A DNA stretch of 64,000 bases from Bacteroidota bacterium. Lineage in GTDB: Bacteria > Bacteroidota > Bacteroidia > UKL13-3. Each line of letters begins with the position of its first letter. The stretch's first letter is position 1. This document shows, piece after piece, positions 40,640 through 57,181 of the stretch. The stretch is from contig CANNQU010000008.1 in assembly GCA_947507965.1 (NCBI GenBank), positions 8,459 to 72,458 on the forward strand. Direction: 5' to 3'. A model generated the notes under the pieces. It saw only the letters and a list, made by a program, of their open reading frames with translations, searched no databases and had not been told where the DNA came from. Made by a program: the position numbers and the translations under genes.

Positions 40640-41539
40640 TTAGATGAAAGGGTTATCGGGAAGAACGTAGCCGATATAGCCCTCGCGTTTTAATTTAACA
40701 ATACTTTCATTGGTTGGCTCCTCTTTCATGATAAGGCTTGTAATGAGGCCATACTGCATTAGTCCAACCTTACAGAGGAAATTGTGAAGCCTCAATTTGC
40801 TCTGTATCTGTTTAAAAACGCGTCCATTGTCTTCCCGTTTTTCATCTTCTGCCCCTTCCACAAAACAATCATTTTGTTTTTTATAAAAAACGTTTTTCAA
40901 ATTTAGGGCCAGTGCTATTTTGTTAATTTCTCTTTCCGAGACGGTAAAAATATAATTACCCACCGACTCAAAATTTTCATATTTGTGTATTCCACTTAGG
41001 AGAAGATGTAAACTATTAATGAAACCACGAATATTTTTTACGACGACGTTATCCCGACCAAAATTAATGTTTTTGTCCATTGGCTCAATCAGCACGACGC
41101 CTCTTTTTGCAACACGCAACATTTCATACAGGGCGATGGAAGGACGAGGAAAATGATGGTATGCTTCTTTGCAGAGTACGAAGTCGAAACGTTGGTCTTC
41201 AAACGACATTTTTTCTGCATTTTCAGCACTAAAGTTGGTAATAAATTGATCGCGATTAGCCACGATGAGTAGTGTGTCGCTTAAGTCGGTGGCCGTCACG
41301 TTTTTCACTCCATTAGAGAGCAAATAGTTTGCATCGGTACCATAGCGGCCATCACCTACGGTAAGCCACGAGGCGTCGGGGTATGATTCGATTAGAGGAA
41401 GCAGGTTTTTATACATCTTCTCGTGCCGCCAATAATCCACGGTATCTTTTTTTTTCCAGCTATCTAAAAGTTTTTGATCATTAATTTCATCCGAATGCTT
41501 TTTATGCAATTGGTAACTTTTCTCGTTATACAGGCTCAT
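40640..41539 (-). CDS. Class I SAM-dependent methyltransferase
   Basis: WLTVGDGRYGTDANYL (motif I-like) and FDFVLCKEAYHHF. Confidence 0.7.
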   Translation of the reverse strand: MSLYNEKSYQLHKKHSDEINDQKLLDSWKKKDTVDYWRHEKMYKNLLPLIESYPDASWLTVGDGRYGTDANYLLSNGVKNVTATDLSDTLLIVANRDQFITNFSAENAEKMSFEDQRFDFVLCKEAYHHFPRPSIALYEMLRVAKRGVVLIEPMDKNINFGRDNVVVKNIRGFINSLHLLLSGIHKYENFESVGNYIFTVSEREINKIALALNLKNVFYKKQNDCFVEGAEDEKREDNGRVFKQIQSKLRLHNFLCKVGLMQYGLITSLIMKEEPTNESIVKLKREGYIGYVLPDNPFI

Positions 41540-41548
41540 GTTTTTAGG

Positions 41549-42688
41549 TTAATCTATTAATTTCAAAAATTGGGTGCCGAAGGCAAGAACATTTTTTTCA
41601 TAGTCAATCGTCCCGGTGTTTAGCGTTTTTTCAGACAGAACCAATATCATTTTTTCAGACAAATCGGCTGCAGATAGAGGGTTAAACACCAATCCGGCAC
41701 CAGCAAGCTGTTCGATATTTACATCGATTGCCGAGGCAATAATAAATTGGTTCATTGCTTTTGCATCCTCAATAACCGTACTCCATCCTTCAAAAAGAGA
41801 AGGCTGAATTACGGCCAATGCGTTTTTCATTAATTGCAGGAGGTGAGCACGATCGATAAAACCCAAAAAACGAATCTCGTTTTCTAAATTATTATCTTCC
41901 ACTAGTTTTTTTAATTCTTTGGCATATTCAGGGTTACGATTATCGTTTTCTTTCCCGGTAAAAACGATACAGGGCTTGCGGCCTTCTGTTTTTAATAGTT
42001 TTGCGGCCTCTATTACGACACGGTGATTTTTGTGTTTCCAAAACTGGTTTGGAGCAATAAAATAATCCTTTGGCAAACGATAAGTCACCCTCAAATCTTC
42101 TTGTTTTAGCATATGATATGAAGGGTGTGTAACGGCAAAATGTAATACGTGTTTTTTTGAAAGATGGTCGGGATAAAAGGTGTTAAAACTGTTGCAAGCG
42201 TCATGACTACTAAAAACAACGTGACATTTTTTCGATGCGATTTTTTTGTGGTGCGATATTCTTCGTAAAATTTCACGCGCACTAAAAAAACCGGGATAAT
42301 ATAATTCTTGAAAATCCGGAATCCAATAAAAGGGGGTAGTATAATACCTAATGTGAGCACTAAAAACGGGAAACACGGCAACGCAATCGGAAATTGCGGG
42401 ATAGCTTTTGAAGAGATGCTGTTTCAGGAGTTTTTTTGCGAGAAAGTTTACCCCTCTTTTAAAAAAAGAAATGCCCGCCTTATTATCAAAAACAATTTCG
42501 AAGTATGGGTAGTTAAGGTTCCTAATGATCGCTTCTTCGTTAGCGGTGGTCACTATTATCTTTAAAAAGGGCTTCTGTGAATCGTCTATTGTTTTAAGCG
42601 CTTCTATCAGATTCAGCACATAATAGGTACCGCCCATCCACTGTTCGTCGTATAAAAACAGGAGTGCTATTTTTTTTCTTTCGGGCAT
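41549..42688 (-). CDS. Glycosyltransferase, GT-B fold (GT4-like)
   Basis: C-terminal ...VIQPSLFEGWSTVIEDAKAMNQFIIAS. Confidence 0.75.
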   Translation of the reverse strand: MPERKKIALLFLYDEQWMGGTYYVLNLIEALKTIDDSQKPFLKIIVTTANEEAIIRNLNYPYFEIVFDNKAGISFFKRGVNFLAKKLLKQHLFKSYPAISDCVAVFPVFSAHIRYYTTPFYWIPDFQELYYPGFFSAREILRRISHHKKIASKKCHVVFSSHDACNSFNTFYPDHLSKKHVLHFAVTHPSYHMLKQEDLRVTYRLPKDYFIAPNQFWKHKNHRVVIEAAKLLKTEGRKPCIVFTGKENDNRNPEYAKELKKLVEDNNLENEIRFLGFIDRAHLLQLMKNALAVIQPSLFEGWSTVIEDAKAMNQFIIASAIDVNIEQLAGAGLVFNPLSAADLSEKMILVLSEKTLNTGTIDYEKNVLAFGTQFLKLID

Positions 42689-42741
42689 GCTGCAAAATTA
42701 ATTTCGTTTAATACAAATAAAATAATTTATTTTGAAAGGTA

Positions 42742-43632
42742 ATGAAAATATTAATAATCGGCAGTGCGGGCTTTATCGGAAAAAATCTGGTTGCCTTCCT
42801 TAAAAACAAAAATCACGAAGTTTTCAGGGCGGACATAATGATGGAGGAGCAGACCGATTATTTTTTATTAGCAAAAGAAAATTCCGACTTCGACAAGCTT
42901 TTCTTAGAGAACAAATTTGATATTTGCTATAATTGTTCGGGTGCCGCCAATGTAAATTTTTCGATTCAAAACCCGCTATTGGATTATGAGTTAAACACCT
43001 ATAATGTATATAAAATTTTAGATGCCATTCGCAAGCACAATAAGGGTTGCAAGTTTGTTAACCTAAGTAGTGCCGCGGTATATGGCAACCCCCTTGAAAT
43101 GCCGGTGAGTGAAACAACAGAAGGAAATCCAATTTCCCCTTATGGGTTTCACAAATTAGCTGCCGAAAACATTGGATTTCAGTTTGCCGCATTATATGGT
43201 ATAGCGGTCATTAATGTCCGTATTTTTTCGGTATATGGGCCAGGTCTAACAAAGCAGATATTTTGGGATGTATTTCTGAAACACCAACAAGCAGGACCAA
43301 TTAAGCTCTATGGCACAGGCGAAGAAACGCGTGATTTTATTTATATCGATGATTTGTGTCGGGCATTAGAAGTTTCAGCCATGAACACGACCCATTCGAG
43401 CATCATAAACATCGCTTCCGGTAAATCCATCACGGTAAAAAAGGCCGTAGGTTTATTATTAGAGAATTTAGGAAATACGGGCGTCGTAGCGTTTAACAAT
43501 GAACAACGTGTTGGCGACCCGCTTTATTGGGAGGCAGATATTTCAAGGTTTCTTGAATCAGGCCCATTCGAGTTTACGAAAATTGATGAAGGACTACAAA
43601 AAACAGCACAATGGATGCTCACGCTTTCTTAA
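42742..43632 (+). CDS. NAD-dependent sugar epimerase/dehydratase (SDR)
   Basis: MKILIIGSAGFIGKNL (GxxGxxG) and SPYGFHK (YxxxK). Confidence 0.85.
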   Translation: MKILIIGSAGFIGKNLVAFLKNKNHEVFRADIMMEEQTDYFLLAKENSDFDKLFLENKFDICYNCSGAANVNFSIQNPLLDYELNTYNVYKILDAIRKHNKGCKFVNLSSAAVYGNPLEMPVSETTEGNPISPYGFHKLAAENIGFQFAALYGIAVINVRIFSVYGPGLTKQIFWDVFLKHQQAGPIKLYGTGEETRDFIYIDDLCRALEVSAMNTTHSSIINIASGKSITVKKAVGLLLENLGNTGVVAFNNEQRVGDPLYWEADISRFLESGPFEFTKIDEGLQKTAQWMLTLS

Positions 43633-44476
43633 CCACAAAGCTGTACATACGTCCCGCAATAAGGCTTTCGTCTGGTATTACTCCAAAAAACTTTCTCAAG
43701 AAAAACCGTTGTACTTTATTCGTGAAGGAAAATCGACTGAAAAAATTTCCATTGACCAGGGTAATTATTTTAATGTTTTTTCTTCCTTTTTCTACTTTTT
43801 GTTTTGAAAAGGGGAAATAATTAAGGATGGAGTCGAAATAAGTATAAATATTTTCAATCACTAGTTCGGCATTAACAAAGCTGTTTTTGTATTCTTCAAG
43901 GGTGTATGCATTTTCACCCAAATAAAATTTTTGTAAAGGGTGCACGTGTAAAAACCACTCTTTATCCAGCTCGTTATAAATCACATGTTCTCTAATGCCC
44001 AGAAGCACTCCGTTTGGCTTTAATACACGAGCACATTCATTTACAAATTGCTGTAGGTTGTGAGCGTGATGAAAGGCTTGTCGGACGTAAACCACATCAA
44101 AGGTTTCTTTTTCAAAAGGTAAATTTTCGGCGTAGGTGGTGTGTATTTCCAGAGACGGCAGGACAAAATGCTCTTTTAATTTTTGAATCGCTCCAGCACC
44201 CACCGTATCGCTCTTATCCGGCTCTAAGGCATCAACATGAAAACCATGGAGCGCAAACGAAACGGCGCTGATACCATTCCCACTTCCCACATCTAGTAAT
44301 TTTAATGAACTATTGGTGTTGTGTCGGTTTATAATATTTAGTGTTTCTTCAAACTCTTCGCTTGTCTTAAATCGGTTAACGTTTTCAACTAAATTATCCG
44401 TGAGGTATGAGTTAAAGACAACATCATTAAATTCCTTCTTTGTTCGAATGTATTGTATGGTTTCTTCCCAGGTCAT
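43619..44476 (-). CDS. Class I SAM-dependent methyltransferase
   Basis: LLDVGSGNGISAV (motif I) and FDVVYVRQAFHHA. Its 3' end overlaps the convergent epimerase gene by 14 nt. Confidence 0.8.
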   Translation of the reverse strand: MTWEETIQYIRTKKEFNDVVFNSYLTDNLVENVNRFKTSEEFEETLNIINRHNTNSSLKLLDVGSGNGISAVSFALHGFHVDALEPDKSDTVGAGAIQKLKEHFVLPSLEIHTTYAENLPFEKETFDVVYVRQAFHHAHNLQQFVNECARVLKPNGVLLGIREHVIYNELDKEWFLHVHPLQKFYLGENAYTLEEYKNSFVNAELVIENIYTYFDSILNYFPFSKQKVEKGRKNIKIITLVNGNFFSRFSFTNKVQRFFLRKFFGVIPDESLIAGRMYSFVVKKA

Positions 44477-44570
44477 GAATGTTTATCAAATATTAGGGTG
44501 TTAATTATTGTTCCAAAATTACAGAAAAGGTCTTCGACTTTATTTCTTCCGATAATTTCAGGTAAAAACA

Positions 44571-45179
44571 TTATAATTTTTTTATAAATTTTGCAGGGTT
44601 TCCTCCAACTAAAGTAAAATCATCAACATCTTTAGTAACTACGCTACCGGCAGCAACTACGGCCCCTTCACCAATCGTGATGCCTTTCAAAAGTATAGAA
44701 TTAAAGCCAATCCATGCGTTGTTTTTTATTATTATTTTTTTACTCTCCACGTCATCCCAGTTTTTTAAGGCACCGGGCTTACCCATCGCAATGCTTTTCT
44801 TCCACTCCATTACATCATGTTGACGTTGAACATTATTTAGGGAGTGTGCATTGGTGTCAATGGTGGTGCAGCCCCAGGAAAACATAACATGGTCGCCAAT
44901 GATTATTTCATCGGCGGCAATAAAAGAGCTGCCCCCCAAAAAAGTTCCGTTTCCAACGGTAATTTTAGCCGTTGGTTTTTCAACAAAAAAACTCCCGAAA
45001 ATAAGGCAATCCGAACCAATCTCTATGTTTAGAGCGCCCTTTGAAACGAGCTTTACCTCCATTTTTAGTCCATCAATATCACTGTTTTCTCCTACCTTTA
45101 AATTTCCATTTAGGAGAAGTTTTTTATGGTGCGACTTATTAATAAAACTTCGAATATAATTCAGCATCAGATTTAACAT
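44571..45179 (-). CDS. Hexapeptide-repeat (LbH) acyl/acetyltransferase
   Basis: Repeated [LIV]-G-x-x-x-x hexads, ...IGFNSILLKGITIGEGAVVAAGSVVTKDV. Confidence 0.8.
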   Translation of the reverse strand: MLNLMLNYIRSFINKSHHKKLLLNGNLKVGENSDIDGLKMEVKLVSKGALNIEIGSDCLIFGSFFVEKPTAKITVGNGTFLGGSSFIAADEIIIGDHVMFSWGCTTIDTNAHSLNNVQRQHDVMEWKKSIAMGKPGALKNWDDVESKKIIIKNNAWIGFNSILLKGITIGEGAVVAAGSVVTKDVDDFTLVGGNPAKFIKKL

Positions 45180-45186
45180 TGTCTTA

Positions 45187-46107
45187 TCAATTAAATAATT
45201 TGTTTTTTAAAGAAATGAAACCCAAAAAGAGTCTTGCCTTTAAAGAAAACTTATAGGCTTTATGATATGTGTTTAAATCGGCCATATAATTATTAATGAC
45301 ATGAGCAGGGTGCCTAATTTTTTCATCGAGCTCCTTCGCCTTTAGGTTTGCTAATTTATTTGAAGCGTCTTTGGTACGCGATGCGCTTGCGTTAAAACCA
45401 ATATTGGTGACCAGGTTTATATTCGGTAAAACACATAGCCCATGTTGCATCCAGGTGCTTATTTGCCATTGAGCATCCCAGGTATCAATTTTATTATTAT
45501 ATACTTTCTTAAAGTGGTCCAACCAAAAAGAACGTTCACCGCTGGTATGAAACAAATAGTTGATTTGGTTGGATTTTAAAAACTCTTCATACAGCTCTTG
45601 ACTCAATGAATTGAGCTTCCAGGCTCTTCTCCAAGTAGCCCAACCCCAAATATGGCTGTAGTTTGAAAAATAATAAGAGGCCTCTCCCCATGTTTTTCCG
45701 AATTGAAAGTTGTTACCGCTTATTTGCATGATCCGTTCATCGTCCTTATATTGGAGCAATAACGTATTACAAAACACAAAAAAAGAAGGGTTCGGCAGAC
45801 AATCGTCTTCTAAGATAATCCCCATTTCTTCATGCTCGAAAAACCAGTCTATGGCTGAACTGATGGCTATTTTACACCCCAGGTTAGTTGTTCTAAAGAG
45901 TGTTTTTACCTCACAAGGCCAATCGACACTGGCCAATAATTTCGTTTTCAGGTCTTCGCATTTTTCTTTTTCACCCCATACGTTTTCTCTCGCACCGTCG
46001 GCGGCGATATAAAGTTTCGCCGGCCGGTATTGCCTTATTTTTTCAAATACCGTTAACGTCGTGTCGTGACGATTAAAGATAAGAAAAAGAAGAGGTGATT
46101 GGGTCAT
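45187..46107 (-). CDS. GT-A fold nucleotide-diphospho-sugar transferase-like protein
   Basis: LFLIFNRHDTT...LYIAADGAR...ILEDDCLP (DxD-like EDD). Resembles the HlpA-like/GnT-I-like family as I remember it. Confidence 0.6.
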   Translation of the reverse strand: MTQSPLLFLIFNRHDTTLTVFEKIRQYRPAKLYIAADGARENVWGEKEKCEDLKTKLLASVDWPCEVKTLFRTTNLGCKIAISSAIDWFFEHEEMGIILEDDCLPNPSFFVFCNTLLLQYKDDERIMQISGNNFQFGKTWGEASYYFSNYSHIWGWATWRRAWKLNSLSQELYEEFLKSNQINYLFHTSGERSFWLDHFKKVYNNKIDTWDAQWQISTWMQHGLCVLPNINLVTNIGFNASASRTKDASNKLANLKAKELDEKIRHPAHVINNYMADLNTYHKAYKFSLKARLFLGFISLKNKLFN

Positions 46108-46110
46108 TTA

Positions 46111-47070
46111 TTATTGGAGAAGTTTTTGAGCTATACGGGAATTAATAACAAGTTTATAGGGAGCCGCTAACAAGTGTTTAAACACAAACCTACCCCCATA
46201 TATTTTGGCCAATAGAGCCCACCTTAAACCATACTTTTGAAAAAGTAAAAATCCTGGATTTAGGGTGTTGATGTGTTTGTGCTTTTTCATTTCAATTATT
46301 TCTTTCACACGTTTTTCAGAATAACCGAGCGCAGCAATCGACTCGAGTAATAAATTACTCATATCGATAAAAAAAATCTTCGGCCAAAATTTTCTCCAGG
46401 GAGAACTATCGCCGGCCTCAAAAGTAATTAACGGTTTACCCATATAGAGTGTTTGTCCGGCAGCCGCGGCCACAAGCGCCAACGACATACAGCCCACATT
46501 ACCATCTTGCGTGTGTTTTTGTTCAAACGGGTGTGGCAGAACACTTCTTTTAATAATAAGCCGTTGAGCGCCGATGAGATCCGAATCGGAAATTAAATTG
46601 AGCAAATCTTTCCCATCCTCAAAAAAAATATTTTTATTTACCTCATTAAATTTTTCTGATAGCACAACATTCGTTGCGAGAAAAACAGCTTTTGCGTTTA
46701 CCATGATAAAGGCTAATTCATGGTTGTATTTTTTTATTTGATCTATTACGTCTGATAGAGAATGATCAAAAGTCAACATATCGTCATCGGGGATAAGCCA
46801 GGTGTATTCTGCTGTTCCCAAGGAGAACACTTTTCGTATGTTTTTTTCCGAACCAATGTTGGTCTCGTTTTTGGTATAGTATATGTTTTTGTAGCTGAGG
46901 TACGACTCGGCAATCAGGTTTTTGGTGAGATCGTTCTCACTGTTGTCGGAAATATTAATTTCAATATCGTTGTCGCTCAAATTTTTCTGCGACAAAATCG
47001 ATTCAATTAATATCTTAATTTGATTTGGCCTGTTATAAGTAGGTATTCCTATGGATAAAATTGGATGCAT
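46111..47070 (-). CDS. Glycosyltransferase family 2
   Basis: LSIGIPTYNRP N-terminus and ...LIPDDD. Confidence 0.8.
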   Translation of the reverse strand: MHPILSIGIPTYNRPNQIKILIESILSQKNLSDNDIEINISDNSENDLTKNLIAESYLSYKNIYYTKNETNIGSEKNIRKVFSLGTAEYTWLIPDDDMLTFDHSLSDVIDQIKKYNHELAFIMVNAKAVFLATNVVLSEKFNEVNKNIFFEDGKDLLNLISDSDLIGAQRLIIKRSVLPHPFEQKHTQDGNVGCMSLALVAAAAGQTLYMGKPLITFEAGDSSPWRKFWPKIFFIDMSNLLLESIAALGYSEKRVKEIIEMKKHKHINTLNPGFLLFQKYGLRWALLAKIYGGRFVFKHLLAAPYKLVINSRIAQKLLQ

Positions 47071-47073
47071 AGC

Positions 47074-47994
47074 TTAGTTTCTTTTCCCTAATAAATAATA
47101 ACTGCCATTCATGGTAAGAATAGGATATTCCGACCAATTAAAACTTCCAAGCTTCCTTTGAAACCCACTAAAGTATTTCCTGTTTCCCATCTTATCAAAA
47201 TCTTTCTGATACGCTATTAAGATGTATTCGAAGGTATCTAAAATAGAAATAAAGTGATCCCGCAATTCGAAAGGCGATTCTGATAATGACCAAGTAGCAA
47301 TAAACAATTTGTTTTTCGCATAATTTTTGTTTTCGGCAGCCACCATTTCGATGTTTTTTGTCAATGTAATAGGCCCTTCTGTCTCTAGTTCACAAGGAAG
47401 ATGCAATGCATTTAAATAAAACTTTTGAAGGCATAGAAGTTCAGGTAAATCGAAGATGGTGTATTTAATATTGGTATTTATTTTTGAGAACAAACTACAC
47501 ATGTTTCCATACCCACCGCCAAATTCCAGTACATATTCAATGTTTTTTAAGTCAACTGCAAACTGTTTCGTGAGCTGAAGCAAGTGATAGGTTTGGTGTA
47601 TTTTGTTGGTGCCCAATAATCGGTTTCTCCAAAATCGATCGGGATTACCGAACCCATTTTCGAGGAGTAAAAATTTCCATCGGGAATAAAAAAGAGTTTC
47701 TCTTTTTATGGCATTATATTCACGATCAACCATCGTTGAGTTGAAGCTTGTTATGGTATATTTTATAAGTTCCCATTGCAGAAAATCGGAGGGATTCTGG
47801 TTCAAAAAACTTTCTTTCATTTGCTTTGCAAAGAGGGTCCAGGTTTCCGAATAATGGCCACTTAAAAAATGCGTATTAACGTCTCTTCTAAAGCTTTCTA
47901 TTTGAGCAGTATTAAATTCTTGGGCTTGGAGAGGGCGTATGAAGTTTTTAAGCCGATAGGTTGTATTCCGTATTAATTTTCTGATGGATAGCAT
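47074..47994 (-). CDS. Putative sugar O-methyltransferase (class I SAM fold)
   Basis: VLEFGGGYGNM glycine-rich motif. Context inside the sugar operon. Confidence 0.6.
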   Translation of the reverse strand: MLSIRKLIRNTTYRLKNFIRPLQAQEFNTAQIESFRRDVNTHFLSGHYSETWTLFAKQMKESFLNQNPSDFLQWELIKYTITSFNSTMVDREYNAIKRETLFYSRWKFLLLENGFGNPDRFWRNRLLGTNKIHQTYHLLQLTKQFAVDLKNIEYVLEFGGGYGNMCSLFSKINTNIKYTIFDLPELLCLQKFYLNALHLPCELETEGPITLTKNIEMVAAENKNYAKNKLFIATWSLSESPFELRDHFISILDTFEYILIAYQKDFDKMGNRKYFSGFQRKLGSFNWSEYPILTMNGSYYLLGKRN

Positions 47995-47995
47995 G

Positions 47996-49717
47996 CTATG
48001 TTCCTTCTATTTCTGTTGGTTTTACTAATGGCTCCATATCGGTGATGGGTCGGCCAAACGCAATTTTTGGATAGGCGTTGGTGTTTAAGTCGATCATCAC
48101 CTGTAATAAAAAGGGTTCGTTCTCCTTTTCCCAAACGGCGCTTATTGCTTGTTCTATTTCTGTTTCGTGGTGAATGGTCATGGCTTTTATGCCATATCCC
48201 GCGGCAATATTTTCAAAATTGGGTGCCGAATAACCCCAAACCGTCGATTGATAACGGCCCTCAAAATAACTATCTTGAAACTGCCGTATCATACCCAATG
48301 AATTATTGTTTAACACCACTATTTTTACAGGCAGCTTATTGCGCATAATGGTTTGCAACTCTTGAATATTGAGTTGAATACCACCATCGCCATTGATGGT
48401 TACGACAGGCTTATTGCCTAAGGCAATACAAGCTCCAACGCTGGCCGGCAGGGCATAGCCCATGGCACCCATGCCAGCCGAAGTTAAAAATCTTTGATTT
48501 TTATAAAGATACAATGATTGGGCGCTCCACATTTGATGGCTACCCACATCGGCAATATAGCATTGGGCTCGCGGAGACAATAAAGAGAACCGTTTGATAA
48601 AAGCATTCGGATTAATACCCACGCTATCGGGCTGTTCGGAGGTATCCAAAAACTTGTTTTTATTTTCTTCGATCTCTTGATGCCATTCACCAAAACGATC
48701 GTTCGTTTTTGGTTTCTCCCGGTTAATGAAATCAAAGAAAGAGTTTAAATCGGCCGTTAAACTATAATCTGTTTTTATGCGATTATTAATTTCCGAGGCA
48801 TCGATATCTACCTGAAAAATAATTTTATCTTTCGTGAAGGACGCTACATCTGCACCCGTCTGACGAATATCAAGCCGACTTCCCAAAACAATAATCAGGT
48901 CGGCGTTACCTAAGGCCATATTAGCCCAACGGTTACCATAGCTTCCAATGAAACCCACTTTGTTCTTGTGGCTGGTTTCCAGTACGTCGAGGCCCAAGAG
49001 CGAGGTTACCAGAGGCAGGTTATAGGAGCTAATAAATTGAGCTAACGGGTGTCGGGCATCAGCGGTGGAAATACCTCTTCCAGCCAATACTATAGGCTTC
49101 TTACATTTCGAAAGTTCGTTCAACAGGGCATCACAAAAAATAACCGTTTCGTTATTAGGAGAGGGCGTGTTTAATATTACTTTACGTGGCAAAATACCCA
49201 ATGTAGCGCGCTGGATATTCATGGGAATATCGATCAAAACGGGGCCGGGCCGGCCTTCCATACTGAGTTTGAATGCTAATTCCAGGGCCGCTTCAATTTC
49301 CGATTCGTGGGTTATTTTTATCGCTTTTTTGGTGACGGGTGCGGCCATCGACACGATATCTGTTTCTTGAAACCCAAGCTGGCGAATGTTTCTATCACCT
49401 TTTTGCTCGTTGGTGTTTACCTGTCCGGTAATAAATATGGCGGGAACGCTATCATAAAAGCAATTGCCTATACCGGTGAGTAAATTGGTGGCACCGGGCC
49501 CACTGGTAGCCATTGCCACCGCAGGTTTATTGGTTATGCGGGCATGGGCATCGGTAGCAAAAGCACAGGCTTGTTCGTGATGACAGGTTACGATTCTAAT
49601 TTTTTTGCTGTCGTATAAGGCATCCAGCATAAACGTGATCATGCCCCCCGACAGTTCATAAACCGTATCAATTTCATGAAGAATAAAAAATCGGGAAATA
49701 TACGTTGCTACGTTCAT
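47996..49717 (-). CDS. Thiamine-pyrophosphate enzyme of the acetolactate-synthase large-subunit family (YerE-like candidate)
   Basis: The three-domain AHAS-like pattern ends with the TPP motif GDGGIQLNIQEL...VVLNNNSLGM. Start set at the ATG at 49717, which overlaps the upstream stop (TAATG). Confidence 0.8.
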   Translation of the reverse strand: MNVATYISRFFILHEIDTVYELSGGMITFMLDALYDSKKIRIVTCHHEQACAFATDAHARITNKPAVAMATSGPGATNLLTGIGNCFYDSVPAIFITGQVNTNEQKGDRNIRQLGFQETDIVSMAAPVTKKAIKITHESEIEAALELAFKLSMEGRPGPVLIDIPMNIQRATLGILPRKVILNTPSPNNETVIFCDALLNELSKCKKPIVLAGRGISTADARHPLAQFISSYNLPLVTSLLGLDVLETSHKNKVGFIGSYGNRWANMALGNADLIIVLGSRLDIRQTGADVASFTKDKIIFQVDIDASEINNRIKTDYSLTADLNSFFDFINREKPKTNDRFGEWHQEIEENKNKFLDTSEQPDSVGINPNAFIKRFSLLSPRAQCYIADVGSHQMWSAQSLYLYKNQRFLTSAGMGAMGYALPASVGACIALGNKPVVTINGDGGIQLNIQELQTIMRNKLPVKIVVLNNNSLGMIRQFQDSYFEGRYQSTVWGYSAPNFENIAAGYGIKAMTIHHETEIEQAISAVWEKENEPFLLQVMIDLNTNAYPKIAFGRPITDMEPLVKPTEIEGT

Positions 49718-50589
49718 TACAATAGGTCTTGGGTAATATTGTCCCAATTCAATCGGGTTGTAAAGTTAAAAAAATTATTGAATTTTTCTGCGTTGCCTTC
49801 CTGGTGCATCACCTGACCTTTTCTGTGCGCAATGGCTCCGTAGTGTATTTCGCTTTCCGAGCCATAGAGCTTTTTTACTTTCTCCGTAATTATTTTTAGT
49901 GTCGTCGAGGTGTTTGACGATAGATTGTAAACATCTTGGATGCTTCCCGTTTTCTGCACAACCAATTGCAAGGCCCGAAGCAAATCGTCGATATGTAAAT
50001 AATCAACCCGTTGCTCGCAGGTGGTGACCTCCAATAGTTCATTCTTTTCTAATTTTGATTTCACCATCTCAAGAAACCATTTTCCGCTTGTACACCTGCC
50101 GTATATGGTAAACAATCGTAACCAAACCCAGGTCATTGTTTCGGCATTATTTCTAAGGTATTCAAGTGTTTTAAGTTTGTAAACGCCATAGGCATCGACA
50201 GGCAATAGCGGTTGTTTTTCATCTACTCTGCCAAGGTAATTACCGTATTCGGCCTGTGAACCCAGCACCATTATTTTGTTGATGCCATTATTTTTGCAGT
50301 GCTCAATTATTTTTTTTGATTTTATATGGTTTTCTTTTTGCAGTTCTTCATTTTGTCGTTCTTCAAAGGTTACCCCATTCCAGCTACAATGTAATAAACA
50401 AGCATACGGTAATGCATGAGCACGAAAAAAATCGGGATATGATAAATACGAAATTTGGCCCGTATCGTGCTCTTTTACTTTAGAAACCAAGGCAAGAACG
50501 GTATAACCTAACGAAGCAAAAAAACGAACACAATGCCCACCAATATATCCATGAGCACCACTAATGATAATGCCTTTATCCGATTTCAT
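49717..50589 (-). CDS. NAD(P)-dependent SDR reductase/epimerase (YerF-like candidate)
   Basis: IISGAHGYIGGH (Rossmann) and YGVYK (YxxxK). Confidence 0.75.
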   Translation of the reverse strand: MKSDKGIIISGAHGYIGGHCVRFFASLGYTVLALVSKVKEHDTGQISYLSYPDFFRAHALPYACLLHCSWNGVTFEERQNEELQKENHIKSKKIIEHCKNNGINKIMVLGSQAEYGNYLGRVDEKQPLLPVDAYGVYKLKTLEYLRNNAETMTWVWLRLFTIYGRCTSGKWFLEMVKSKLEKNELLEVTTCEQRVDYLHIDDLLRALQLVVQKTGSIQDVYNLSSNTSTTLKIITEKVKKLYGSESEIHYGAIAHRKGQVMHQEGNAEKFNNFFNFTTRLNWDNITQDLL

Positions 50590-51887
50590 TCGTTAAAGAT
50601 ATGGTTAAAGGTATCGATTACGTGAGCAATCATTTCCTCGTTAATCATAGGCGTGACACCAATCCAGAAGGTATTGTTCACTACGGTTTCGGTGTTGGGG
50701 GTTTCGGCGGAATTTCTATAGGTGACCGTTTTAAAATACGGTTGTTTACGAATATCACCAGCAAACAATAAACGGGTAGCAATTTTAGCCTCTGTTAATT
50801 GTTTAATTATTTCGTTACGATTGGAGTCTTTGAGGGTAATTAAAAAACCAAACCAAGAGGGGTTAGCGTTGATGGTCGCTTCGGGTAATATGATCTTTGA
50901 CGTCAGGTGTTTTAGCCCATCATAGAGTAGCCGGTAATTGTCTCTGCGTTGGGCGATAAACGAGTCCAGTTTATTTAACTGTGCGAGCCCTAAAGCGGCT
51001 TGCATATCGGTAATTTTTAAATTATATCCTAAACGGCTGTAAATATATTTATGATCGTAACCTGTTGGCAAATCGCCGAGACTCCAGTCGAACCGTTTCC
51101 CACAGGTATTATCCATTCCGGGCTGGCACCAGCAATCGCGGCCCCAATCTCTAAAGCTTTCAACAATTTTGGCAAGCTTTGCATTACTCGTAAACACAGC
51201 ACCGCCTTCTCCCATGGTGATGTGGTGAGCCGGATAGAAACTTAAGGTAGCTAAATCGCCGAAAGTGCCCACATGTTTACCATTATAAGTAGCACCCAAG
51301 GCGTCGCAACAATCTTCAATCAACCACAAATTATGTTTTTTACAAATAGCCGCAATCTCTTCAACGGGAAAAGGGTTTCCAAGGGTATGAGCCACCATAA
51401 TAACCTTTGTTTTGGGGGTAATGGCAGCCTCTATTTGGGAAGTATTAATATTATATTCGGGTATGGTGATATCGACAAACACCGGAACCACGCCGAGGGT
51501 AATAAAGGGGTTGATGGTGGTTGGGAAAGAAACGGCAACGGTAATTACCTCATCGCCAGCTCGTAGTTTACGATCGCCCAGCTCGTCGGCAGTAAGGGCG
51601 GTAATGGCCAGCAAATTAGCCGATGAGCCCGAGTTTACGGTAAGCACCGTTCGGGTGTTTATATAGGTGGCTAGTTTTTTTTCAAACGCCTCATTAAAAC
51701 GTCCTGTTGTAAACCATCCGTCCATGGCCGATTCGGTGATCATTTGCATTTCTTCATGATCAAATACTTTGCCACTGACGGGCACGGACGTTTCGTTTTT
51801 TACGAAGGTCTTGGGGGTGTTTTTTATTGAATGATACTCTTTAAGTAATTCAAATATTTTGTTTTTTATTGTCGTTGCTTCGCCCAT
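50586..51887 (-). CDS. rfbH: CDP-6-deoxy-4-keto-hexose 3-dehydrase (E1, RfbH/DdhC; DegT/DnrJ/EryC1 fold)
   Basis: SFYPAHHITMGEGG has His where aminotransferases have the Lys. Cys194-X57-Cys252-X1-Cys254-X7-Cys262 spacing, counted by hand. Confidence 0.88.
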   Translation of the reverse strand: MGEATTIKNKIFELLKEYHSIKNTPKTFVKNETSVPVSGKVFDHEEMQMITESAMDGWFTTGRFNEAFEKKLATYINTRTVLTVNSGSSANLLAITALTADELGDRKLRAGDEVITVAVSFPTTINPFITLGVVPVFVDITIPEYNINTSQIEAAITPKTKVIMVAHTLGNPFPVEEIAAICKKHNLWLIEDCCDALGATYNGKHVGTFGDLATLSFYPAHHITMGEGGAVFTSNAKLAKIVESFRDWGRDCWCQPGMDNTCGKRFDWSLGDLPTGYDHKYIYSRLGYNLKITDMQAALGLAQLNKLDSFIAQRRDNYRLLYDGLKHLTSKIILPEATINANPSWFGFLITLKDSNRNEIIKQLTEAKIATRLLFAGDIRKQPYFKTVTYRNSAETPNTETVVNNTFWIGVTPMINEEMIAHVIDTFNHIFNE

Positions 51888-52966
51888 TATTTTGTTAAGT
51901 ATAAATCAATCATGGACATTCTTTTTTGCAATAGCGCTGATGATGAAAATTGAATTTCATCAAAATATCCATCTACCGTGAACTTTACGGTTTCTTCGAA
52001 GTTGAGTTTGGGGTTCCAGTTGAGTTGCGTTGTTGCTTTGGTGATATCCAATTGCAAATATTGTGCTTCATGCATGGCATTTGAAACATGTTTCACTTCT
52101 ATGGTTTCTAAGGAGCTCTCTTTTTTTATTTCGTTTAATAAGGTCATCACTGTTTTATGGGTGGCATTTAAAGGCCCAAAATTCCAGCCACCATCGAATT
52201 TCTTGGGCTCCTTACCCAATAGAGCAGCACCCAGCAGCAAATAGCCTGTAAGGGGCTCTAAAACAAATTGCCAAGGACGGGTAGCATCCGGGTTTCTTAT
52301 TTCAAGAGCGGCCTTGTTGATAAAAGCTCTAAAGAAGTCGGGCACTATTCGAAATGCTGCCCAATCGCCTCCCCCAATTACATTACCAGCCCTTACGGAG
52401 GCCAAGGTACAATCGGTATCTTTAAAAAACGACGTATTATAGGCGTGGGCCACTAATTCTGCTGCACCTTTGCTGGCGCTATAGGGGTCGTTTCCACCCA
52501 TGGCATCGTTTTCCCGATATCCCCAAACCCATTCCTTGTTTTGATAACATTTGTCGCTCGTAACATTAATGATACCTTGGGTATTGCCACATTTTCGCAC
52601 CGCTTCAAATACATGTACGCTACCCATGATATTGGTTTCAAAGGTTTCCACGGGATTAGTATAAGAATCCAATACGATAGCCTGTGCAGCCAGATGAAAG
52701 ACAAAATCAGGATTTACCTTTTGAATAAAGTCGTTTAGTTTTTTTCGATCAAGGATATTTCCGATGGTATGATGTAACTGTTTTTCCAGGTTAGTCGATG
52801 AAAAATTGTCGTGTGGTGTTTTGGGTTCAAGCGAATAACCGTGTACTTCGGCGCCCAGCTTTAAGAGAACCATACAAAGCCACGATCCTTTGAAACCGGT
52901 GTGACCGGTGACCACGATTTTTTTATTCCTGTAAATTTCGAGTTGACTATTTACCATGTTTTCCAT
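51887..52966 (-). CDS. rfbG: CDP-glucose 4,6-dehydratase
   Basis: VTGHTGFKGSWL, YSASKGAAE, 359 aa. Confidence 0.9.
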   Translation of the reverse strand: MENMVNSQLEIYRNKKIVVTGHTGFKGSWLCMVLLKLGAEVHGYSLEPKTPHDNFSSTNLEKQLHHTIGNILDRKKLNDFIQKVNPDFVFHLAAQAIVLDSYTNPVETFETNIMGSVHVFEAVRKCGNTQGIINVTSDKCYQNKEWVWGYRENDAMGGNDPYSASKGAAELVAHAYNTSFFKDTDCTLASVRAGNVIGGGDWAAFRIVPDFFRAFINKAALEIRNPDATRPWQFVLEPLTGYLLLGAALLGKEPKKFDGGWNFGPLNATHKTVMTLLNEIKKESSLETIEVKHVSNAMHEAQYLQLDITKATTQLNWNPKLNFEETVKFTVDGYFDEIQFSSSALLQKRMSMIDLYLTK

Positions 52967-53736
52967 TCTGCTTTATTGGCACTCCACAATTCATTCAGAT
53001 CGTTTTTATCTTTTAGGGTATCCATAGGACGCCAAAAACCAAAATGTTTGTATGCGTTTAATTGTCCTTTAGCAGCGAGGGTTTCCACCGGATGTTTTTC
53101 CCAGATGGTATGGTCGTTTTCGAGTAAGTTGAAAATACTGGGTTCAAGCACAAAGAAACCGGAGTTAATCCAAACGCCATCTCCTTTTGGTTTTTCATTG
53201 AAATTGTTAACGGCACCCGTTTCGTTAATATCGATCACACCGAATCGCCCAACGGGTTGAACGGTGGTAAGGGTAGCTTCTTTTTTAGAATCGATATGAG
53301 ATTGAAGAAGGGCATTTAAATTTATGTTTCCAACGCCGTCGCCGTAGGTGAGCATAAAGCGTTCATCACCAATATACGGTTGTATTCTTTTGATTCGTCC
53401 TCCGGTCATGGTATCGTCGCCGGTATCCACGATGGTAATATTCCAAGGTTCAACCTCATTTTTATGATACTCAATGGCGTTGTTTTTTAGGTCAACGGTA
53501 ATGGTGGTGTTATGTAACACGTAGTTGGCAAAGTATTCTTTAATATAATAATTTTTATAGCCCCCACAGATCACAAAATCAGTAAAGCCAAAGCTCGAAT
53601 ATATTTTCATGATATGCCATAAAATGGGTTTCCCGCCTATCTCCACCATGGGCTTGGGCCGAACACTGGTTTCTTCGCTTAAACGGGTACCTAACCCCCC
53701 TGCTAATATAACTACTTTCATTTTTTGTAATGGCAA
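52951..53736 (-). CDS. rfbF: Glucose-1-phosphate cytidylyltransferase
   Basis: VVILAGGLGTRLSEET..PKPMVEIGGKPILWHIM, ~257 aa. The start may be MKVVIL (53721). Confidence 0.9.
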   Translation of the reverse strand: MPLQKMKVVILAGGLGTRLSEETSVRPKPMVEIGGKPILWHIMKIYSSFGFTDFVICGGYKNYYIKEYFANYVLHNTTITVDLKNNAIEYHKNEVEPWNITIVDTGDDTMTGGRIKRIQPYIGDERFMLTYGDGVGNINLNALLQSHIDSKKEATLTTVQPVGRFGVIDINETGAVNNFNEKPKGDGVWINSGFFVLEPSIFNLLENDHTIWEKHPVETLAAKGQLNAYKHFGFWRPMDTLKDKNDLNELWSANKAEWKTW

Positions 53737-53745
53737 AAGTATGCT

Positions 53746-55239
53746 TTATTTTGAGTTTACGAAGGCTTTCAATCTGTTTTTTATCTGATAGTAGAAATCA
53801 TTTACCTCCGACGATAGAGACCATTTGAACAGCAGAAAAACGAAGGCCAATGAATACAAAATGCTTTTGAATAGAATGGATAGATAAACATTTGAAATGG
53901 TAACAAACTGCAATGCCAGCAGCAGTGATGCGATAATTACAAATACCCCCGCAATGGCTTTAGAAAAGGGCTGTAGTTTAAACCAATATAAAATGTATCC
54001 GTAGCGCACACTGTTATAAACAAGGGTTCCAATTAAAGTGGCAAAGGCAATGCCAAGGAGGCCATAATTTTTGATAAACAAAATGCTTAAAGGAATATTT
54101 ATTAAAATTAAAATCACTTGTGTGGTGAAGTTAAAACGCCAGGCATTGGAGGTATTTAAAATTTCTTCATTCATGCCGGTGGCCGTATCAATTAATTTGC
54201 CGACTCCAAGGATTAGGATGATATATTTTATTTTCGAATAGCTCGAGGGAAGCAATGCGATAATGCTGTCGATATTAACCCACATCAACCCAAAGATAAA
54301 ACCGCAGGCGATCAATAAATTTAACGCCGTTCTTTGGTATAGAAGCTCTATTTTCTTCAAATCATTATTACGCCAGGCATCGGCCATAATAGCGATGGAA
54401 ACACCATAGATACTTCGTTTGGGCACATCTAATATCTGTGCAAAATATAAAGCAACAACATAAATAGCGGCATCGCCCAAGCCGTTATAGCCGGATATTA
54501 AAAGCGGGGCAATGGCATCGCTTAGGGCGATAATAATGATTCCCAGGTAAATATAGCCACTATAACCAATGATAAATTTTTTAAGTTTTTGGGTTACCCT
54601 ACTAAAGGAAGAGGTAAAGTGCAATGCTTTTTTTGAATGTAAAAAAAGTAATAAGGGGATGCAAGCCAGCAGGTAAAAAAAGGAAATGGCGGCAATAATA
54701 AAATGAAAATCGATTTGTTGGAAATAGAAAAGAACGAGAAGTATAATAATATAAATTTTAAAAGCTATTTCTTCAATGAGGGTAGGTAAAATATTGTTGT
54801 GATAGGTATGAACATGTGTTTTTAGAATCACAAAATACGAGATGAACAAGGTGTAAGGGTAGATCCAGAAAATGTATTCGACTAATAGTTTAGATTTCGT
54901 AGAATAAAACGCCACAAAGGTATCTTGAAAAAGGAAAGTTAGCAGGGTTACAACGATAAATCCCAAGGTAGGCAGCACCAATGAAATGGTTAACAGGTCG
55001 TTTTCTTTAGGCTTAAGATGAGCCTTATAAAAAGGAGCAAACTTGTAAATGGATGAGGTAAATGACAGAATGGCAAAGTGCGACAAGGTTCCAGCAAGCG
55101 TCATGATGAGCCGTGACAATCCGAATTCTTCCTGACTTAAGAGATGGGGATAAAGAACAAAGATATTGATAGCCCCGATGGCAAACCCGGTATAAGTTAA
55201 TATTAAGCTCCACGAACCTTGTTTACGTATAACTCCCAT
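53746..55239 (-). CDS. Polysaccharide/oligosaccharide flippase (Wzx-like, MOP superfamily)
   Basis: 497 aa, about 12-14 predicted TM helices, first gene of the sugar operon. Confidence 0.7.
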   Translation of the reverse strand: MGVIRKQGSWSLILTYTGFAIGAINIFVLYPHLLSQEEFGLSRLIMTLAGTLSHFAILSFTSSIYKFAPFYKAHLKPKENDLLTISLVLPTLGFIVVTLLTFLFQDTFVAFYSTKSKLLVEYIFWIYPYTLFISYFVILKTHVHTYHNNILPTLIEEIAFKIYIIILLVLFYFQQIDFHFIIAAISFFYLLACIPLLLFLHSKKALHFTSSFSRVTQKLKKFIIGYSGYIYLGIIIIALSDAIAPLLISGYNGLGDAAIYVVALYFAQILDVPKRSIYGVSIAIMADAWRNNDLKKIELLYQRTALNLLIACGFIFGLMWVNIDSIIALLPSSYSKIKYIILILGVGKLIDTATGMNEEILNTSNAWRFNFTTQVILILINIPLSILFIKNYGLLGIAFATLIGTLVYNSVRYGYILYWFKLQPFSKAIAGVFVIIASLLLALQFVTISNVYLSILFKSILYSLAFVFLLFKWSLSSEVNDFYYQIKNRLKAFVNSK

Positions 55240-55349: not shown

Positions 55350-56201
55350 TTACTCGTAGTTATAAAATCCTTTCCCTGTTTTTTTACCCCAATGCCCGGC
55401 ATCTACCTTTTGTTTTTGAATACGGCTAGGCCGAAATTTCGCGTCATAAAAAAACTGCTCATAGAGGCTCGATGTCACCGAAAAGTTAGTATCCACACCA
55501 ATGAGGTCGATGAGTTTAAAGGGGCCCATTTTAAAACCGGTGGCTTCCATTAAGGCATCAATTTCGTGTATTTCTGCCCCACCCTCCTCTACTATTTTTA
55601 GTGCTTCTACATAGTAAGGTCGTGCCACTCGGTTTACGATAAAACCGGGTGAATCTTTTACCATCACCGGTGTTTTATTAAGTTTGAGAACGAATGATTT
55701 GGCGTGTTTTAAAACGATGTCTGTTGTTTCTGCTCCGGCAATAATTTCAACCAGCTTCATGAGGTGTGCGGGATTAAAAAAGTGTATTCCAACCACTCGG
55801 CCCGGCAGCGGTATCTGGGCTGCAATTTGTGTGATGGGAATAGAGGAGGTGTTACTAGCTAAAATACAGTGGCTTGCATTTTGTGCTGCGAGTCTTTGCA
55901 TTAAATCGCGTTTGATATCCAGCTTTTCAACGATGGCCTCGATACAGATATCCGCTATCAAGTTACTGAAAAGAGAGGTGCATGTTATTCTTTTGAGGGA
56001 ATCTGTTTTTTCCTGTTCGCTCATTTTCCCTTTGCTGATGGCAACGAAATAATTTTTTTCAATGTCCTCTTTGGCTTTTAGTAATGCGGTTTCGTTAAGG
56101 TCGTACAACCAAACCGAAAACCCAGCCTGAGCGCATACTTGAGCCAAGCCGGCGCCCATGGTGCCGGAACCAATGATGGCTACAGAGTGAATAGAATTCA
56201 T
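55350..56201 (-). CDS. 3-hydroxyacyl/3-hydroxybutyryl-CoA dehydrogenase
   Basis: VAIIGSGTMGAGLAQ and C-terminal 3HCDH domain features (GFIVNR...). Confidence 0.88.
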   Translation of the reverse strand: MNSIHSVAIIGSGTMGAGLAQVCAQAGFSVWLYDLNETALLKAKEDIEKNYFVAISKGKMSEQEKTDSLKRITCTSLFSNLIADICIEAIVEKLDIKRDLMQRLAAQNASHCILASNTSSIPITQIAAQIPLPGRVVGIHFFNPAHLMKLVEIIAGAETTDIVLKHAKSFVLKLNKTPVMVKDSPGFIVNRVARPYYVEALKIVEEGGAEIHEIDALMEATGFKMGPFKLIDLIGVDTNFSVTSSLYEQFFYDAKFRPSRIQKQKVDAGHWGKKTGKGFYNYE

Positions 56202-57181
56202 AAACGATAAATTTTAAGTATGATGATAAATGTCAACAGCCCCATCGCAATTATTTCGTTCAGAAAAAAACGCCAAGTGCCCATAAAAAAATACGATGCT
56301 AAATAACTAAAAGGAAGGAGAAAAAACAAAAGATGTTGATCGTTAAGTGGCAAGACGAACAGGATGATGGATAAGATAACGACGCTCAATACCAGAAGCG
56401 TTTTTTGAATGATACGTGTTTTGATATTATTTTTAAAATGAAAGGTATAAATTTTAACAGAAGAAAAAATCAAAATCAAGGCTAAGGCACCCAACAAGAA
56501 TAATTCCGGCTTTGTTTCTTCAAATGGAGGCCCCCCTCGATAGTACACAAGCAAATTTATTTTTTCAACAAAATAGGGTAAACGGTTGTCATAAAAACAA
56601 AAAACAAAAACGAAGTATAGGGGTAGTAAGGCACCAATGGCCGCAATGAGGTAGTCGCGCAGGGTGGGTATTTTTACATAAAAAAGACCAATCCAAAAAA
56701 CCAAAATAAGGTAGGCCATGGGCAAGTAAAGTAAAAACCCCACACCGAGCACCAGCATGGATGTCAGTATTTTTTCCTTTGCATCGCTCGATTTATACAA
56801 CCCAAAATACACGCTCAACGCTAGCATTAATGGGGTTTGTGCTAATAAGGCGGGTGTAATATTAACATCTACTCCATTAAGAAGAGAGGCAAACAGGGCA
56901 TAAAACAGAGCCGGCAAGTACGTGTTTTTATAATGTATCGCATGTTTTTCGAACAGATAACTTAGATGCAGCATTTGAAAGATAACAATACAGCATCCTA
57001 TAACATAACTAGTCGTCTTCGTTTGGTTTAGGAAAACCAGAAAACCCTCAAAAAAGGTATAATGTATAAAATCACCGGAGTGGGTGCCGGATATTAAAAA
57101 GGAGGGAAGCCTCAACAACAATACCATGAATACCAGGGTAATAAAAACAATCGGGCGGCGTATGGTAAAGAGTTTGATCAA
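56198..57181 (-). CDS. Polytopic inner-membrane protein of unknown function
   Basis: 327 aa, about 9-10 TM helices. The stop overlaps the dehydrogenase start (ATGA). Confidence 0.65.
   Translation of the reverse strand: MIKLFTIRRPIVFITLVFMVLLLRLPSFLISGTHSGDFIHYTFFEGFLVFLNQTKTTSYVIGCCIVIFQMLHLSYLFEKHAIHYKNTYLPALFYALFASLLNGVDVNITPALLAQTPLMLALSVYFGLYKSSDAKEKILTSMLVLGVGFLLYLPMAYLILVFWIGLFYVKIPTLRDYLIAAIGALLPLYFVFVFCFYDNRLPYFVEKINLLVYYRGGPPFEETKPELFLLGALALILIFSSVKIYTFHFKNNIKTRIIQKTLLVLSVVILSIILFVLPLNDQHLLFFLLPFSYLASYFFMGTWRFFLNEIIAMGLLTFIIILKIYRL

Follow-up and report, generated by a model that had tools for sequence, protein, structure and literature searches.

The stretch of DNA analysed here (the window) consists of 64,000 nucleotides (nt) of contig CANNQU010000008.1 from a Bacteroidota bacterium of the UKL13-3 lineage (assembly GCA_947507965.1). 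Its minus strand carries, in this order, rfbF, rfbG, rfbH, a gene for a short-chain dehydrogenase/reductase (SDR) and a gene for an enzyme dependent on thiamine diphosphate (ThDP, or thiamine pyrophosphate, TPP), which together are predicted to make a branched-chain sugar nucleotide. According to the table of open reading frames (ORFs), successive genes overlap by 16, 1, 4 and 1 nt, and a methyltransferase-like gene begins 1 nt past the end of the TPP gene, which confirms the gene order and spacing given in a preliminary description of the locus. The five genes are as follows.

52951..53736, minus strand: rfbF (ddhA), glucose-1-phosphate cytidylyltransferase (TIGR02623, 407 bits against a cut-off of 300)
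51887..52966, minus strand: rfbG (ddhB), cytidine diphosphate (CDP)-glucose 4,6-dehydratase (TIGR02622, 451 bits against a cut-off of 278)
50586..51887, minus strand: rfbH (ddhC), E1, the pyridoxamine phosphate (PMP)- and [2Fe-2S]-dependent CDP-4-keto-6-deoxyglucose 3-dehydrase (NF011936, 688 bits against a cut-off of 423)
49717..50589, minus strand: extended SDR of 290 amino acids (aa), candidate side-chain ketoreductase (Pfam Epimerase PF01370, 89.7 bits)
47996..49717, minus strand: YerE-like ThDP-dependent carboligase of 573 aa, predicted to branch sugars at C-4 (homology, tree and motifs)

The TPP ORF at 47996-49747 (583 aa) opens with TTG, and the ATG at 49717 gives the 573-aa protein. 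This ATG is the start chosen in independent gene calls on metagenome contigs with an identical protein, and homologues have their N-termini at the corresponding position. The gene calls on metagenome contigs also start rfbF at an ATG at about 53721 (256 aa), 15 nt downstream of the TTG at 53736, and this ATG is likely the true start. The alternative starts of the two genes leave the overlaps intact.

The products of rfbF, rfbG and rfbH are genuine equivalents of DdhA, DdhB and DdhC. All three exceed the curated NCBI equivalog cut-offs by wide margins, and they are 58%, 48% and 58% identical, respectively, to the corresponding proteins of Yersinia similis. The Y. similis locus (L112), retrieved by a scan of species-representative genomes with the sequence of Protein Data Bank (PDB) entry 5AHK as lead query, has the canonical order hemH-ddhD-ddhA-ddhB-ddhC-yerE-yerF and also supplied the YerE sequence used below. 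RfbH carries the Fe-S motif C-X57-C-X1-C-X7-C (C194, C252, C254 and C262) and retains the active-site His pair of E1. Its stretch SFYPAHHITMGEGG is exactly that of Y. similis DdhC, with a His in place of the pyridoxal phosphate lysine of aminotransferases. The identities assigned to the three genes in the preliminary description are thus upheld by the TIGR02623, TIGR02622 and NF011936 scores together with the Fe-S motif of E1.

The TPP protein matches PF02776, PF00205 and PF02775, all above cut-off, and has the motifs HHEQ at residue 46, with the cofactor-activating, catalytic Glu, and GDG-X25-NN at residue 443. Its central FAD-type domain, PF00205, scores 106 bits, and the enzyme is probably flavin-binding. 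The equivalog models for acetohydroxyacid synthase (AHAS, acetolactate synthase) all stay below their cut-offs (TIGR00118, 458.7 against 538.35 bits; NF006524, 462.5 against 738 bits). Among solved structures, 5AHK ranks first with 427 bits over residues 18-563, ahead of E. coli AHAS I (296 bits), the plant and fungal AHAS enzymes (about 280 bits) and entry 8RPH (250 bits), which is JanthE (PMC12188165). The sequence of 5AHK is in turn 71% identical to Pseudomonas proteins encoded directly past ddhD-ddhA-ddhB-ddhC. Full-length alignment with Y. similis YerE gives 41% identity for the window enzyme (E-value 5e-137); IlvB and IlvI of E. coli are 33% identical to it.

A neighbour-joining tree of 42 sequences (558 columns, 200 bootstraps), with glyoxylate carboligase (Gcl) as outgroup, places the window enzyme in a Bacteroidota-dominated clade (100%) that is sister to the proteobacterial YerE clade (100%). 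The latter includes 5AHK, Y. similis YerE and the enzyme of Aliivibrio fischeri ES114, and the two YerE-like clades jointly split from IlvB and IlvI at 100% bootstrap. All 39 YerE-like sequences have in common a 6-residue insertion (window residues 105-110) that is absent from IlvB, IlvI and Gcl. They also have in common 30 diagnostic positions, for example R[LM]D[IV]RQ, read as RLDIRQ in the window enzyme, where AHAS has RFDDR. The TPP enzyme is therefore YerE-like and not an AHAS, and the family scores, BLAST, the bootstrapped tree and the insertion all speak against a grouping with housekeeping acetolactate synthases, the outcome that the preliminary description had named as its refutation. 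Judged by its sequence, it is a predicted YerE-type, sugar-branching carboligase of a sister lineage in which no enzyme has been characterised.

On this evidence it is extremely improbable that a housekeeping or catabolic acetolactate synthase lies in this glycan locus by coincidence. Such an enzyme would belong to the same three-domain fold family and use the same pyruvate decarboxylation chemistry; the best NCBIfam matches by score are indeed AHAS models, and homologues of the window enzyme are publicly annotated as 'acetolactate synthase'. Against it stand the failure of every AHAS model to reach its cut-off, the position with YerE at 100% bootstrap and the YerE-specific indels and motifs. 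The gene context argues in the same direction: no gene for an AHAS small regulatory subunit (ilvN or ilvH type) adjoins the TPP gene and no ilv genes are its neighbours, which are the SDR gene and the methyltransferase-like gene. The TPP gene is moreover kept alongside ddh genes in at least 75 of the 80 related loci described next.

Relatives of the TPP enzyme were sought in one genome per species, and 222 were confirmed; the surroundings of the gene were checked in the best 80 of the 222. These 80 relatives are 51-59% identical to the window enzyme and almost all are from Bacteroidota, with carriers in Mucilaginibacter, Pedobacter, Flavobacterium, Hymenobacter, Niastella, Chitinophaga, Solitalea, Arcicella and many metagenome-assembled genomes. 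Near the TPP gene, an rfbH-like gene is found in 75 loci, an SDR or rfbG-type gene in 77 and rfbF in 63. Two gene orders occur, rfbF-rfbG-rfbH-SDR-TPP as in the window and, more commonly, rfbF-rfbG-SDR-TPP-rfbH. An ORF was called immediately upstream of the TPP gene in 74 loci, and in 62 of them it belongs to a single SDR family, as defined by a hidden Markov model (HMM), and its end lies no more than about 100 nt from the start of the TPP gene. Since a large majority of the 80 loci have this module beside the TPP gene, the arrangement in the window is not due to chance, and the proposal that the five genes form one unit is borne out by their conservation. In seven loci (L015, L024, L040, L044, L066, L068 and L080), the gene just upstream of the TPP gene encodes a DegT-like protein (about 435 aa) that shares only 35-38% identity with RfbH, and no SDR gene is adjacent; these loci may act on a different acceptor sugar or belong to a different pathway.

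The adjacent SDR is the candidate for the step after branching. Its SDR motifs are intact, with the nucleotide-binding GAHGYIG at residue 11 and YxxxK (YGVYK) at residue 134, so that the carboligase gene is adjoined by the gene of an extended SDR with an intact nucleotide-binding motif and the Ser, Tyr and Lys catalytic residues. Among curated families it matches Pfam Epimerase only. A tree of SDRs encoded beside YerE-like genes resolves three families, the YerF type (100%; for example L112:9660-10589), the Vibrio type (for example L121:9610-10647) and the Bacteroidota type (97%), to which the window SDR (49717-50589) belongs. The 62 SDRs of the single HMM-defined family divide between the Bacteroidota-type clade and the Vibrio-type clade; the latter holds proteins of A. 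fischeri ES114, Vibrio and Leminorella as well as some from Bacteroidota. The window SDR sits on a long branch, with its best match, 37% identical, in Hymenobacter, and the members of its clade are encoded immediately upstream of the TPP gene. A kinship of the window SDR with that of A. fischeri had been suggested by a score of about 200 bits for an HMM built from TPP-adjacent Bacteroidota SDRs, and was rejected when pairwise BLAST and the tree showed that this HMM had merged two families. The presence of three non-orthologous SDR families beside YerE-like genes indicates that the partner reductase has been displaced repeatedly, at least twice.

Taken together, we estimate at roughly 70% the probability that the five coupled genes encode a route to a yersiniose-type sugar, a 3,6-dideoxyhexose that is branched at C-4 and activated with CDP. 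In the proposed pathway, RfbF would make CDP-glucose and RfbG would convert it to CDP-4-keto-6-deoxyglucose. RfbH (E1) would then strip the 3-hydroxyl to give CDP-4-keto-3,6-dideoxyglucose, with an electron donor encoded elsewhere. The YerE-like ThDP enzyme would decarboxylate a 2-oxo acid, most likely pyruvate, and add the resulting acyl carbanion to the C-4 ketone, giving a tertiary alcohol with an acetyl branch. On chemical grounds deoxygenation must precede branching, because E1 acts via the free C-4 ketone that branching consumes. The adjacent SDR would reduce the branch carbonyl to a 1-hydroxyethyl group, and the glycosyltransferases, methyltransferases and acyltransferase encoded downstream would build and decorate a surface glycan. 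Computation shows the families of the RfbF, RfbG and RfbH products, the YerE-like identity of the TPP enzyme and the conservation of the module; which donor is used, what the SDR does, how the product is configured, which sugar is methylated and what kind of glycan results are predictions.

Several observations weigh against this reading, and they concern the carboligase, the reductase, the electron supply and the known chemistry of the phylum. The closest solved structure, 5AHK, is reportedly PpYerE of Pseudomonas protegens (Hampel et al. 2018), an identity supported by its 71% match to the Pseudomonas proteins encoded past ddhDABC, but it bears the PDB title acetolactate synthase II. The window enzyme belongs to a sister group of the characterised YerE clade rather than to that clade itself, so that its donor and acceptor specificities are extrapolated, and the tree excludes ErwE and MMAR_2332, which use longer donors. 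These last enzymes define another possible reading, in which a YerE-like enzyme takes a longer or functionalised 2-oxo acid and the product is a sugar with a longer branch, as in erwiniose, caryophyllose or gastriose. Characterised YerE-like enzymes do vary widely in their donors: YerE uses pyruvate, whereas ErwE, MMAR_2332 and MyGE use longer hydroxylated 2-oxo acids made by a cluster-encoded aldolase; ErwE rejects pyruvate, and MyGE and JanthE accept C3 to C8 donors (PMC9306805, PMC12247030). The window enzyme, in its separate uncharacterised clade, has residues other than those of the YerE clade at 22 clade-specific positions. The clusters of ErwE and MMAR_2332 carry an aldolase (PMC9306805), whereas no aldolase or other donor-supply gene is present in the window locus and none is conserved among the neighbours clustered in the 80 loci; this includes the ErwI/ErwJ-like pair of aldolase and acetaldehyde dehydrogenase. 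In PpYerE, V479 tunes stereoselectivity (PMC12247030). The window enzyme has a bulkier Ile (I477) at the equivalent position and so, as far as can be inferred, gives no sign of an enlarged pocket. We therefore consider a longer donor unlikely; with no aldolase present or conserved, pyruvate, and hence a two-carbon branch, is the most economical reading.

The reductase raises a second difficulty. The preliminary description had matched the SDR with YerF, but orthology of the two proteins is refuted by three lines of evidence. BLASTP aligns them at 23% identity over only 119 residues (E-value 4e-4), the window SDR scores 13.6 bits with an HMM of 48 proteobacterial YerF proteins, and the tree places it in a separate clade, at 14-16% identity. 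It is related to YerF at the superfamily level only, and its clade has no characterised member. A second SDR of the locus (42742-43632) scores higher than the adjacent one with the YerF HMM, at 34.8 bits, and both scores are at the level of generic SDRs. The closest solved relatives of the window SDR are sugar-nucleotide 4-epimerases such as MoeE5 and GalE, with weak scores.

All of these observations would fit an SDR that acts as C-4 ketoreductase or epimerase in the synthesis of an ordinary 3,6-dideoxyhexose such as abequose, paratose or tyvelose, while the TPP enzyme works on some other substrate or leaves an acetyl branch unreduced. A C-4 reductase, however, would vie with the TPP enzyme for one and the same ketone, yet their genes are coupled in the window and adjacent in most of the related loci. 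The pair of carboligase and extended SDR is also found in Yersinia and in A. fischeri, both makers of yersiniose, the latter according to the passage of PMC7940393 that cites Post et al. 2012 for yersiniose in the V. fischeri O-antigen. This alternative as a whole, with an ordinary dideoxyhexose or an unreduced acetyl branch, is thus quite unlikely. As to the yersiniose-type pathway, the A. fischeri ES114 locus (L121) has ddhDABC, a carboligase of the YerE clade and an extended SDR outside the YerF family, and hence a replaced reductase partner is compatible with yersiniose synthesis. In Yersinia, YerF is held to set the A or B stereochemistry of the side chain (PMC5399914), and as of 2016 the reduction step was without biochemical characterisation (PMC4753412). 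The window SDR is accordingly a candidate for the branch ketoreductase on the basis of conserved adjacency and pathway logic, not of homology.

As far as the window shows, the chief gap in the pathway is the electron supply. E1 requires a two-electron donor, and the E1(+E3) scheme of the preliminary description finds no counterpart for E3 here. There is no gene for an E3 (DdhD-type) reductase in the 64 kb, where a motif scan for 2Fe-2S and ferredoxin-NADP reductase (FNR) signatures matched PheS only. A tblastn search of the 64 kb with Y. similis DdhD and two E3-like proteins from Bacteroidota also found no E3 (best E-value 0.46). An E3 gene is likewise not found, over a span of about 10 kb, near 12 of the 14 loci that share the gene order of the window. 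One locus with that order has an E3-like tblastn match, at 25% identity over 244 residues, between rfbH and the SDR gene (L067:8391-9071). In the proteobacterial loci, DdhD, with an N-terminal Fer2 domain, is encoded just upstream of ddhA. A reductase whose domains run in the opposite order, FAD_binding_6, NAD_binding_1 and last Fer2, is encoded in 32 Bacteroidota loci, mainly those with the order rfbF-rfbG-SDR-TPP-rfbH. In these, the candidate E3, encoded just upstream of rfbF (for example L027:6191-7216), is 25-37% identical to DdhD, and only piecewise. For the window, E1 presumably draws its electrons from a donor whose gene lies elsewhere or from a general reductase; the E1 homologue SpnQ uses general cellular ferredoxin or flavodoxin reductases.

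If 3-deoxygenation were incomplete for want of an E3 partner, the TPP enzyme could branch CDP-4-keto-6-deoxyglucose instead, and the product would be a 6-deoxy, C-4-branched sugar. The lack of an E3-like gene in the window and in most loci of the same order would suit this alternative, as would the replacement of RfbH by the DegT-like protein in some loci, which suggests that this clade of carboligases may take other keto-sugars. The window RfbH, on the other hand, retains all hallmarks of E1 at 58% identity to Y. similis DdhC, which argues for a working 3-dehydrase and makes this outcome very unlikely. A last point against a yersiniose-type sugar is that no report of Bacteroidota glycan chemistry with yersiniose or another acyl-branched sugar was found in the literature searched.

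Comparison with known systems places the window nearest to the YerE/YerF pathway of Yersinia (Y. pseudotuberculosis O:6 and O:12; Y. similis L112). The two have the same DdhA, DdhB and DdhC steps, a homologous full-length ThDP carboligase with the common insertion and motifs, and an adjoining gene for an extended SDR of about 300 aa, all tightly packed in pathway order. They differ in that the window carboligase falls outside the YerE clade, in its sister clade, and in that the window SDR is not an orthologue of YerF and is encoded upstream of the carboligase, whereas the YerF gene lies downstream. Furthermore, the window has no linked ddhD, it is not a hemH-gsk O-antigen locus, and other genes follow downstream. 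The A. fischeri locus likewise combines ddhABC and a carboligase with an extended SDR outside the YerF family, but that SDR is of the Vibrio type and, in the trimmed alignment, shares 16% identity with the SDR of the window, and DdhD is linked there. With 5AHK, its best solved-structure match, the window enzyme shares the GDG motif for ThDP, the catalytic Glu and the 6-residue insertion past the GQV motif, at an identity of about 40%. The enzymes ErwE, MMAR_2332, MyGE and JanthE follow the chemistry predicted for the window, in which a ThDP enzyme joins an acyl anion to the C-4 ketone of a sugar and an SDR then reduces the product; an aldolase for the hydroxylated 2-oxo acid is encoded in their clusters and none in the window. 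JanthE is also more distant in sequence, scoring below AHAS and having CDG where the window enzyme has GDG. In two Pseudomonas loci (L088 and L127), a second TPP-family gene, whose product is 29-30% identical to the window enzyme, lies downstream of yerE.

The rest of the locus, which extends from about 40640 to 55239, contains the following features.

53746..55239, minus strand: candidate flippase, a 497-aa multi-pass membrane protein encoded directly upstream of rfbF (hydrophobic; no Pfam match)
47074..47994, minus strand: putative NanM-type sugar O-methyltransferase (TIGR04371, 47.2 bits against a cut-off of 44, marginal)
46111..47070, minus strand: family 2 glycosyltransferase (GT2; Pfam Glycos_transf_2, 53 bits)
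45187..46107, minus strand: 306-aa protein of no family (no Pfam or NCBIfam match; kept in the nearest related locus)
44571..45179, minus strand: hexapeptide-repeat acyltransferase (Pfam Hexapep; NCBIfam sugar O-acetyltransferase-like matches all below cut-off)
43619..44476, minus strand: class I S-adenosylmethionine (SAM) methyltransferase (Pfam Methyltransf_11, 69.6 bits)
42742..43632, plus strand: second extended SDR, epimerase or reductase, an alternative reductase candidate (Pfam Epimerase, 146.8 bits)
41549..42688, minus strand: family 1 (GT4-type) glycosyltransferase (Pfam Glycos_transf_1, 72.8 bits)
40640..41539, minus strand: terminal class I SAM methyltransferase (Pfam Methyltransf_11, 55.7 bits)

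The tight packing continues past the methyltransferase-like gene, with gaps of 3 to 7 nt across the genes for the GT2 protein, the 306-aa protein and the hexapeptide acyltransferase. The only sizeable gap in the minus-strand run is occupied by an ORF of 32 aa at about 44473-44571, taken from gene calls on a metagenome contig (L001:15147-15245), which bridges the acyltransferase and methyltransferase genes. The closest related locus (L003) has in common with the window the methyltransferase-like protein, in the same position (40% identity), a GT2 protein, the 306-aa protein (46%) and the terminal methyltransferase (62-63%). A cluster of GT2 proteins is represented in 41 of the 80 related loci. 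The 497-aa membrane protein, which would serve as the flippase, has only weak homologues (23-28% identity), encoded beside the module in L005 and L014. In the methyltransferase-like protein, the TIGR04371 match spans residues 25-196 only, and there are further weak matches to Methyltransf_23 and Methyltransf_2.

The presence of glycosyltransferases, methyltransferases and an acyltransferase makes a role of the locus in a surface glycan reasonable, as had been claimed from the start. The O-methylation of the branched sugar that was suggested along with it is conjectural, and the locus holds three methyltransferase-like proteins.

Two M16 peptidase genes border the locus at one end, and a gene for a 3-hydroxyacyl-CoA dehydrogenase at the other. 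The latter gene overlaps by 4 nt with an ORF for a 327-aa multi-pass membrane protein that matches no family (together 55350-57181). This unusual pair lies just upstream of the glycan locus. Elsewhere in the window, the G+C content drops to 0.31 at 30001-32000, compared with about 0.40-0.43 in the remainder; the dip covers the gap between pheS (29722-30738) and the gene of a Big_5-domain protein (31136-32743). MnmG (33636-35504) is at most 68% identical to any protein of the GTDB species representatives, and all such matches are from Bacteroidota, indicating that no close relative of the window's lineage has been sequenced.

As a class, YerE-like carboligases and the clusters that encode them are well established, and more than 200 enzymes or clusters have been mined by cluster similarity, according to the part of a 2025 review that cites Krug et al. 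2024 (PMC12247030). The prediction made here is therefore well-founded within a known kind. The preliminary description had held that a sugar of this type is uncharacterised in the phylum. This may be literally true of the chemistry, given the silence of the literature searched, but the novelty was overstated, as the module is widespread in Bacteroidota and the mining of YerE-like enzymes is covered by that part of the review. Modestly new are the separate clade of carboligases, the third family of reductases and the unlinked E3. It is possible, though we regard it as doubtful, that the Bacteroidota clade is a distinct branched-sugar lineage, in which a YerE-like carboligase is combined with an uncharacterised SDR family and, in the subgroup of the window, with no linked E3. 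Its product might then be an undescribed branched octose, differing in side-chain stereochemistry, donor or O-methylation, and the first branched-chain sugar to be reported for a glycan of Bacteroidota.

In their source annotations, the homologues of the window enzyme appear as 'acetolactate synthase' or 'thiamine pyrophosphate-binding protein', and renaming them prevents false calls of branched-chain amino acid pathways. The clade also offers diverse ketone-accepting ThDP enzymes and a new family of partner reductases for the biocatalysis of chiral tertiary alcohols, an incremental gain as the concept is established. If the proposed pathway is correct, many soil, freshwater and fish-associated Bacteroidota, among them Pedobacter, Mucilaginibacter, Flavobacterium, Hymenobacter, Chitinophaga and uncultured lineages such as that of the window, display a rare C-4-branched dideoxy sugar on a surface glycan. 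Such a sugar would influence their serotype, their phage receptors and their recognition by the immune system.

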